NCBI RefSeq assembly: GCF_003334385.1 | Contig: NZ_QOWN01000001.1 | Reading direction: 5' to 3' (one strand) | Length of the DNA stretch: 64,000 nucleotides | Origin: Escherichia coli | Lineage (GTDB): Bacteria > Pseudomonadota > Gammaproteobacteria > Enterobacterales > Enterobacteriaceae | Shown here: positions 19,939-20,554 of the stretch, one piece after another | How positions within the stretch are numbered: position 1 is the first letter of the stretch | How the letters are laid out: every line of letters begins with the position of its first letter | Notes under the pieces: generated by a model | The model's input: only the letters and a program-made list of their open reading frames with translations | The model's database searches: none | What the model was told of the DNA's origin: nothing | Position numbers and translations under genes: made by a program

Positions 19939-20023
19939 TTTTTATCAAAAAAATCATAAAAAATTGACCGGTTAGACTGTTAACAACAACCAGGTTTTCT
20001 ACTGATATAACTGGTTACATTTA

Positions 20024-20070
20024 ACGCCACGTTCACTCTTTTGCATCAACAAGATAACGTGGCTTTTTTT
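20024..20070 (+). terminator. putative rho-independent terminator after rsmG
   Basis: Inverted repeat ACGCCACGTT ... AACGTGGC followed by a 7-T run (20064..20070); the loop is long, so confidence is moderate. Confidence 0.5.
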
Positions 20071-20435
20071 GGTAAGCAGAAAATAAGTCATTAGTGAAAA
20101 TATCAGTCTGCTAAAAATCGGCGCTAAGAACCATCATTGGCTGTTAAAACATTATTAAAAATGTCAATGGGTGGTTTTTGTTGTGTAAATGTCATTTATT
20201 AAAACAGTATCTGTTTTTAGACTGAAATATCATAAACTTGCAAAGGCATCATTTGCCAAGTAAATAAATATGCTGTGCGCGAACATGCGCAATATGTGAT
20301 CTGAAGCACGCTTTATCACCAGTGTTTACGCGTTATTTACAGTTTTTCATGATCGAACAGGGTTAGCAGAAAAGTCGCAATTGTATGCACTGGAAAAATA
20401 TTTAAACATTTATTCACCTTTTGGCTACTTATTGT

Positions 20436-20462
20436 TTGAAATCACGGGGGCGCACCGTATAA
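20436..20462 (+). promoter_or_regulatory. atp operon promoter (-35 TTGAAA, 16-bp spacer, -10 TATAAT)
   Basis: Near-consensus sigma70 hexamers read directly at 20436..20441 and 20457..20462, about 90 bp upstream of atpI. Confidence 0.8.
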
Positions 20463-20554
20463 TTTGACCGCTTTTTGATGCTTGACTCTAAGCCTTAAAG
20501 AAAGTTTTATACGACACGCGGCATACCTCGAAGGGAGCAGGAGTGAAAAACGTG

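Follow-up and report, generated by a model that had tools for sequence, protein, structure and literature searches.

The window analysed here (one whole stretch of DNA, 64,000 nucleotides) is the oriC-proximal region of Escherichia coli, and includes mioC, oriC, mnmG, rsmG, atpI, and atpB. We examined the spacer between rsmG and atpI, which is 616 bp of non-coding DNA (19939-20554 in window coordinates; Table 1). In NC_000913.3, the gap from the end of atpI (3922440) to the start of rsmG (3923057) is the identical 616 bp, and RefSeq has no annotated feature inside it. (The MG1655 coordinate is 3942995 minus the window coordinate.) The GC content of the spacer is 0.315-0.38, versus about 0.50-0.55 in the flanks, so an earlier sequence-only reading was right to describe this interval as long and AT-rich. 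Within E. coli, a 701-bp query that spans the spacer has a match at 95% identity or above in 5425 of 5426 complete genomes.

Table 1. Features in and around the rsmG-atpI spacer, in window coordinates. Site names with "-like" or "match" are candidate assignments from consensus strings.
Feature	Coordinates	Strand	Remarks
mnmG	17362-19251		
rsmG	19315-19938		
Conserved TTTTTATCAAAAAA tract	19939-19952	+	Immediately after the rsmG stop codon; A9-A11 invariant, neighbouring columns at least 90% conserved
TTACATTTAAC block	20016-20026	+	5' foot of the terminator; TTTAAC near-invariant in Enterobacteriaceae
rsmG intrinsic-terminator-like hairpin	20026-20071	+	GCCACGTT..AACGTGGC, then T7
Conserved blocks AAGTCA and GAAAATATCAGnCTGCTAAAAAT	20085-20118		Short invariant block at 20096-20118
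Composite TGTTAA-N14-AATGTCAAT-N5-GGTTTTT	20142-20179		Short invariant block; 1.9-1.95 bits per column
ArcA-like direct repeat TGTTA-N6-TATTA	20142-20157		Same aligned position in 56/61 species
IHF-like TATCATAAACTTG (WATCAANNNNTTR, one mismatch)	20228-20240	+	Weak candidate; same aligned position in 32/61 species; its ATCA is invariant
Conserved block TATGTGATC...GCACGCTTT	20293-20314		CRP region
CRP box TGTGATCTGAAGCACG	20295-20310		Conserved footprint 20293-20316
Variable linker of fixed length	20311-20392		Contains TTTACAGTTTT (20336-20346), moderately conserved
Near-invariant promoter-upstream block	20393-20435		Holds GAAAAATATTTAAAC, TTATTCACC and CTACTTATTG; NarL heptamer match common to 54/61 species
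Fis-core match GAAAAATATTTAAAC (G-N3-A-W5-T-N3-C)	20393-20407		Centre at -70; common to 45/61 species
DnaA-box-like TTATTCACC	20410-20418		8/9 matches; common to 56/61 species
FNR-like TTGTTTGAAATCAC	20432-20445		Overlaps the -35; common to 42/61 species
atpIp core promoter	20436-20463	+	-35 TTGAAA, 16-bp spacer, -10 TATAAT; 11/12 consensus matches
atpI 5' untranslated leader	20470-20554	+	Almost invariant; 77% of columns at least 90% conserved
Shine-Dalgarno-like GGAGCAGGAG	20533-20542	+	Within the atpI leader
atpI			Annotated ATG at 20555; in-frame GTG at 20543

At the atpI end of the spacer lies atpIp, which has been named the main promoter of the atp operon (PMC9277811). In a promoter scan of 19800-20700, TTGAAA-16-TATAAT was the sole promoter-like site on either strand. 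Its hexamers are close to the TTGACA and TATAAT of sigma-70 promoters, its spacer falls within the 16-18 bp that we looked for, and both hexamers are invariant in 61 species. The sequence-only reading had already picked out this near-consensus promoter (at 20436..20462), and the match at 11 of 12 positions bears it out. From the position of the -10, we predict that transcription starts about 7 nt farther downstream, near 20470. The supplements of ROSE, Romero 2014, Cappable-seq, and Kim 2012 have no start-site entry for this locus.

Near the other end, we found a hairpin that resembles an intrinsic terminator. (A terminator had been proposed there, at 20024..20070.) Its arms are GCCACGUU...AACGUGGC, its outer stem is 8 bp long, and this GC-containing hairpin directly precedes a tract of seven U's. 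The predicted fold has an energy of -14.3 kcal/mol (z = -3.5), and 0 of 200 shuffled sequences were equally stable. A simple terminator scan missed this hairpin because its loop is longer than 8 nt. At the U-tract of the hairpin, no transcript 3' end appears in the Term-seq data of Adams 2021, possibly because rsmG expression fell below the threshold of that study. The hairpins in this zone differ between genera: Klebsiella, for example, has CCCTGG-GGTTA-CCAGGG and then GTTTTC. The TTACATTTAAC block at the foot of the hairpin is present in full in all four Erwiniaceae that we analysed. We propose that the first ~130 bp of the spacer would terminate the transcription of rsmG.

We also observed that the TTTTTATCAAAAAA tract and the rsmG stop codon together read TTAAT-N4-ATCAA, which by our own reading might be an FNR-like palindrome with one mismatch.

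Conservation of spacer length and sequence

For comparison, we took the rsmG-atpI region of 80 further species, of which 65 (61 Enterobacteriaceae and 4 Erwiniaceae) have complete copies of both genes. Among these Enterobacteriaceae, 60 of the 61 have a spacer of 612-621 bp, and the one exception has 597 bp (standard deviation 2.9). The four Erwiniaceae spacers are 711-816 bp; most of the conserved blocks are kept in the same order, and the extra length lies directly after rsmG. The alignment is nearly gap-free, with no gap at all across 20222-20544. Substitutions have saturated many columns of the spacer, and at many the E. coli base is shared by just 10-30% of the species.

The distances between conserved anchors, which we measured between exact motifs in the unaligned sequences and hence independently of the aligner, are also nearly fixed. 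The distance from TGTGAYC to CACGCTTT is 12 bp in all 66 species, from CACGCTTT to TTRTTCAC it is 103 bp (65/66 species), from TTRTTCAC to CTACTTA 15 bp (66/66), from CTACTTA to CGTATAAT 31 bp (66/66), and from CGTATAAT to the leader block 50 bp (65/66). Farther upstream, ATGTCAA and TGTGAYC are 133-135 bp apart in Enterobacteriaceae and 145 or 146 bp apart in Erwiniaceae (about one helical turn more).

As controls, we considered two neighbouring spacers from the same genomes. The mnmG-rsmG spacer varies from -4 to 118 bp (standard deviation 25, versus 2.9 for the 615-bp rsmG-atpI spacer), while the mioC-mnmG spacer, which contains oriC, is 369-383 bp. The oriC spacer is a textbook example of a spacing-constrained region. 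By this measure, the length of the rsmG-atpI spacer is held at least as tightly as that of the oriC spacer.

Individual bases are conserved as well. Among the four-fold degenerate sites of rsmG and atpI, 19% of columns are at least 90% conserved. The corresponding proportion is 30% across 20071-20392, which is above the four-fold sites (p = 5e-6), and this conservation is concentrated in short blocks. It rises to 77% in the promoter block (20393-20469) and is 16%, at the neutral level, in the terminator zone (19939-20070). The GAAAATAT sequence (within 20085..20118) is retained in Erwiniaceae and in one distant contig (L084), and the composite block at 20142-20179 is retained in Erwiniaceae and in another distant contig (L087). 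The periodicity of conservation has a peak near 10.9 bp, and that of AT dinucleotides within the linker has peaks at 9.5 and 11-11.5 bp. Both are broad spectra, judged against a null model that takes no account of relatedness.

By the terms of the sequence-only reading, conservation no higher than neutral, with no transcript ends mapping inside the spacer, would count against it. The conservation is above neutral (30% versus 19%), so the reading is not refuted on that ground. No 3' ends inside the spacer are listed in the Term-seq tables.

Given a length constraint equal to that of the oriC spacer, might this be an origin-proximal element for chromosome architecture or maintenance, whose nucleoprotein complex is unrelated to atp transcription? 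Invariant blocks at fixed distances with free sequence between them resemble enterobacterial oriC, just 3 kb away, where substitutions are likewise tolerated and indels rejected. Also, the constraint holds as far from the promoter as the stop codon of rsmG. (It also covers the terminator zone, which evolves neutrally, and the promoter-based model that we describe below offers no obvious explanation for this.) However, the spacer has no DnaA-box cluster, with one conserved DnaA-box-like sequence only, and that with a mismatch; it also lacks the 13-mer AT-rich repeats and the GATC cluster of oriC, as there are only two GATC sites in the E. coli spacer. The mnmG-rsmG spacer, which intervenes, varies by more than 100 bp, and insertions into the rsmG-atpI spacer are tolerated. 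Finally, the constraint is anchored at the promoter: among the distal elements, a CRP box is the best conserved, and it is locked to the -10 of atp, not to oriC. We consider an architectural element of this kind to be very unlikely.

Searches for RNA and protein genes

Another explanation for the conserved middle of the spacer is an unannotated small RNA, an antisense RNA, or a micro-protein. Ozoline's group reported that some short RNA oligonucleotides found outside cells derive from the intergenic space of atpI and rsmG, and also that a promoter island there has many predicted start points. On the minus strand, there is an invariant TTGACA (the complement of 20162-20167), and there is a weak Term-seq 3' end at window position 19257.

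Nevertheless, our searches for RNA genes were negative. A search of the spacer against Rfam gave no match even at E <= 10. RNAalifold on 61 sequences predicted 29 pairs with 0 compensatory changes and a covariation term of -0.29. We also slid a 100-column window along 12 diverse sequences, and the structure conservation index (SCI) stayed at about 0 for both strands at every step upstream of the promoter. So the sRNA prediction that the sequence-only reading had called for turned up nothing. Besides the rsmG hairpin, there is no terminator-like site on either strand of the spacer, and Adams 2021 lists no 3' end between MG1655 positions 3922387 and 3923738.

The minus-strand TTGACA could be part of a promoter for an antisense RNA, with the hairpin between mnmG and rsmG as its terminator. 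We rejected this candidate: the orientation of that hairpin is not conserved, rsmG has no recorded dsRNA, and the candidate for a -10, which in E. coli is TAACAG after a 15-bp spacer, is poor.

As for proteins, the open reading frames within the spacer encode at most 30 amino acids, the longest frame without a stop in nearly all of 62 species spans 23 codons, and conserved starts are lacking. Species differ in spacer length by amounts that are not multiples of 3. The small open reading frames had been called spurious, and we agree. Because the RNA, open reading frame, and Term-seq searches were all negative, the spacer appears to function at the level of DNA and not via an sRNA. An RNA or protein gene in the spacer seems highly improbable to us.

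The CRP box and its distance from atpIp

Genomic SELEX identified atpI among new targets of CRP, and a box, CGTGCTTCAGATCACA, was reported between atpIBEFHAGDC and gidB (Shimada 2011, including Table S3; PMC3105977). We found that this published box is exactly 20295-20310, on the other strand. As written in Table 1, it matches 8 of the 10 half-site bases of TGTGA-N6-TCACA, so it agrees with the CRP consensus. The primers for the reporter in that study map to 20036 and 20554, and this 20036-20554 fragment had lower activity in a crp mutant (Shimada 2011, PMC3105977), which implies that CRP activates. The sequence-only reading saw no assigned function for the ~350 bp between the terminator and the promoter. 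That was wrong, as this region holds the published CRP box as well as an H-NS-bound promoter island (see below).

A CRP box is found in 61/61 Enterobacteriaceae (with at most two mismatches), in 4/4 Erwiniaceae, and in three distant syntenic contigs. (In these three contigs, AtpI is 46-60% identical and the spacers are 364, 506 and 636 bp.) In one low-GC contig that is more distant still, a perfect TGTGAGTTAAATCACA lies at about -98, and two other distant contigs do not have the box. Across the 64-kb window, there are 3 such CRP-box loci versus 0.67 expected.

In all 69 spacers with the box, its distance to the -10 (CGTATAAT) is 160-162 bp. This distance is kept even where the intervening sequence is wholly replaced, so we infer from this comparison that the CRP box is functionally coupled to atpIp.

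How the coupling would operate is less obvious. The centre of the box (20302.5) is at about -167.5 relative to the predicted start at 20470, and so it is at none of the class I or class II positions that we considered (-41.5, -61.5, -71.5, -82.5, and -92.5). We know of no established position for activation by CRP that reaches -167.5. The box is too distant for direct contact with RNA polymerase unless the intervening DNA is bent or wrapped. It does lie on the same face of the helix as the classical -61.5 position, since it is 106 bp, or about ten helical turns, farther upstream. The lineages share no -10-like hexamer placed downstream of the box as in a class I or class II promoter, so a nearer cryptic promoter is not the explanation. 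One candidate for a second, CRP-proximal promoter, TTTACG-17-CATGAT (20325-20353), is present in E. coli and is not kept in Erwiniaceae or in the distant contigs, so we rejected it as the reason for the box.

Thus, atpIp resembles CRP-activated sigma-70 promoters of the class I type in its TGTGA-N6-NCACN box, in its binding by cAMP-CRP in SELEX, in its crp-dependent activity, and in sharing the helix face of -61.5. It differs in that direct alpha-CTD contact is established for the range from -61.5 to -103.5, whereas the box at atpI is near -167.5. Also, deeply separated lineages keep the spacing at atpI to within 1 bp, and this suggests a mechanism that is indirect and architecture-dependent.

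These observations bear on a rival view of the spacer: that it is a functionless AT-rich leftover, perhaps the scar of parA-parB, and that only the terminator and the core promoter matter. In Pseudomonas and Vibrio, the gene order is gidB-parAB-atpI. RefSeq annotates nothing in the middle of the spacer, which is also widely used as a neutral integration site: large cassettes have been inserted there to give viable E. coli and Salmonella. In one natural strain, UMNF18, the spacer tolerates an IS91-family element at about 20262. Since strains with insertions are viable, the architecture of the spacer is not essential in the laboratory. But a leftover would not be expected to have a length that is fixed within a few bp across the family, invariant distances between anchors, an excess of conserved columns over four-fold degenerate sites, and an experimentally supported CRP box in its middle. 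Furthermore, the spacer has no parS-like sequence, and parAB is absent from the syntenic loci that we retrieved (some contigs are too short to tell). We view a functionless leftover as extremely unlikely. As for an origin from a mobile element, distant blastn hits against plasmids proved to be only chromosomes that were mislabelled as plasmids.

The H-NS-bound promoter island suggests a different view. Shavkunov, Panyukov, and Ozoline have described promoter islands as AT-rich and bound by H-NS, and the region upstream of atpI is one of 78 such islands (3920739_440 atpI/rsmG), with H-NS binding in two datasets (PMC3661553). The listed island is equivalent to 19840-20279 and so takes in the upstream half of the spacer. 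(We converted its coordinates via the offset between two versions of the MG1655 sequence, and the result is consistent with Shimada's coordinate.) The spacer could then be an H-NS-silenced island that traps RNA polymerase and H-NS, without any sequence-specific regulatory logic, and its GC content of 0.32-0.38 would fit. Most of the tabulated islands, however, overlap predicted genomic islands or foreign genes (PMC3661553), while the atpI/rsmG spacer is core DNA: it is syntenic and deeply conserved (66 species), and it is locked in length in at least two families. This synteny and conservation contradict a foreign origin. Coating by H-NS requires AT-richness, and not invariant blocks of 6-22 bp at fixed distances. 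The CRP box is also outside of the island. We think that an island without sequence-specific logic is unlikely to explain the spacer, and H-NS binding can be compatible with the control region that we propose next.

A proposed control region upstream of atpIp

We think that the spacer is probably regulatory DNA, rather than an RNA or protein gene, and, jointly with this, that the ~480 bp after the terminator is an extended upstream control region of atpIp, the main promoter for ATP synthase. The promoter itself, the CRP box with its crp dependence, the occupancy by H-NS, and the constraints on spacing and sequence all come from data or from the literature. Around these we propose a mechanism, whose coupling geometry and whose factors, except for CRP, are conjectural.

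In this mechanism, the near-invariant block at -77 to -35 would supply the bending of the DNA, with the Fis-core match at -70 and the UP-like T-tracts as possible bending elements. The invariant blocks at about -300 to -450 might bind other global or nucleoid proteins, and the candidates are ArcA, FNR, IHF, and H-NS. CRP, the bending block, and the distal proteins would form a single phase-locked nucleoprotein assembly in a fixed helical register. Such an assembly would account for the loss of indels from a region whose linkers are free to change by substitution.

Which proteins might bind? The Fis-core match is close to -71, the position of Fis site I at rrnB P1, and the candidate sites for DnaA, FNR, ArcA, and IHF are listed in Table 1. 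These labels come from scans with consensus strings. Because AT-rich DNA readily matches strings like these, the five kinds of match are leads and not identifications. For Fnr and ArcA, a statement in Ravcheev et al. 2007 refers to unpublished candidates that lie upstream of atp and are conserved among Enterobacteriaceae, and it also points to conflicting data on atp expression. As described by a citing paper, Kasimoglu 1996 reported that atp expression is independent of Fnr and ArcA; the title of that study, as cited, states that expression depends on growth rate.

Two growth-rate-regulated promoters with upstream activating regions have features of this kind. rrnB P1 has Fis site I at -71, and guaB combines a UP element with Fis sites and has a CRP site far upstream, at -117.5. 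atpIp is like them in being a strong near-consensus promoter with AT-rich DNA upstream, a Fis-core match at -70, a distal CRP site, and a reported dependence of atp expression on growth rate. In contrast, the conserved region of atpIp reaches about -450, which is much farther, and its Fis site is a sequence match.

A bolder version of the control-region model is that the whole 480-bp region acts as a rigid nucleoprotein "ruler," in which CRP at -167.5 and proteins on 20096-20118 and 20142-20179 are wrapped onto the promoter in a fixed helical register. If this were true, then the ruler would be an enhanceosome-like integrator that sets the output of ATP synthase, and it would explain why the length constraint is as strict as at oriC. 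To our knowledge, no integrator of this type has been described for the atp operon. We regard the rigid ruler as doubtful.

The atp operon is usually regarded as near-constitutive, with a simple strong promoter. The components that we describe in the spacer are ordinary and are largely published; the unusual part is the strict constraint on their spacing. What our analysis adds is the constancy of the spacer's length, the fixed separation of the CRP box and the -10, and the invariant short blocks elsewhere in the spacer. Comparison across species shows that this DNA, a routine "neutral" landing pad for engineered constructs, is strongly selected to keep its exact spacing and several short motifs. 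Inserting constructs into it probably disturbs how ATP synthase is natively controlled, at least in subtle ways. The CRP site that is locked at about -167.5 also makes a convenient natural case for studying long-range activation that depends on architecture.

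A transcript 3' end early in atpI

Published Term-seq data (Adams 2021) place a very strong 3' end, on the same strand as atpI, at MG1655 3922387 (window position 20608), which is 53 nt within the atpI open reading frame. It is listed under both growth conditions, and a column that seems to record Rho-dependence reads "No" for it. Since the start of transcription from the atpI promoter is predicted to be near 20470, this end implies an abundant RNA of ~139 nucleotides, comprising the leader and the first codons of atpI. This RNA could reflect attenuation or processing, or it could be a 5' UTR-derived sRNA.

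Elements in the atpI leader and between mnmG and rsmG

The atpI leader and its promoter contain an inverted repeat and a short upstream open reading frame (see table). One arm of the repeat lies within the -10 region and the other is at about +38. RNAalifold pairs them with each other, but the one upstream lies outside the transcript; if the repeat is meaningful, it works at the DNA level. As for the upstream open reading frame, its ATG is kept in most species (AAG, CTG, or AGG is found in some), and the position of its stop codon differs among species.

Features of the atpI leader and of the mnmG-rsmG interval
Feature	Position	Description
Hairpin, GCCTGGTAAGCACCCGCTTACCAGGC	19262-19290	Between mnmG and rsmG; in E. 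coli, minus-strand T-tract
Inverted repeat, CGTATAA / TTATACG	20456-20462 and 20507-20513	7 bp, invariant; flanks the predicted start
Upstream ORF, ATG CTT GAC TCT AAG CCT TAA	20479-20499	Six codons; in the atpI leader

The hairpin between mnmG and rsmG coincides with a weak minus-strand 3' end in the Term-seq data (at ~19257), and it looks like a terminator of antisense transcription that crosses rsmG in the direction of oriC. Klebsiella, Kluyvera, Cedecea, and Atlantibacter also have a hairpin between these two genes, but with a plus-strand T-tract.

The rsmG-atpI spacer in other genomes

In a distant relative (GCA_009183585.1, NCBI; AtpI 34% identical), rsmG and atpI are likewise separated by a long gene-free spacer, of 718 bp (positions 4283-5000 of the retrieved locus; GC content 0.42). 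The sole element of the E. coli spacer architecture that is retained there is CCGTATAATTT, and this 718-bp spacer has no CRP-like box. Long rsmG-atpI spacers may have more than one origin. A "50% identical" AtpI in the protein clusters is from a metagenomic contig (ENA k119_4941) whose sequence repeats the promoter region of E. coli atpI, except that a G stands for every C. This is evidently an artefact of sequencing or assembly.

Among 5,426 complete E. coli genomes, our 701-bp query spanning the spacer was split in just one, strain UMNF18. There, an insertion of ~1.8 kb, with an IS91-family transposase gene and a hypothetical open reading frame, lies at about window position 20262, with the ATGTCAAT block on one side and the CRP box on the other. 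A pattern scan of the window also identified a CRP-type box away from the spacer, the perfect palindrome TGTGAATCGAATCACA at 54636-54651.
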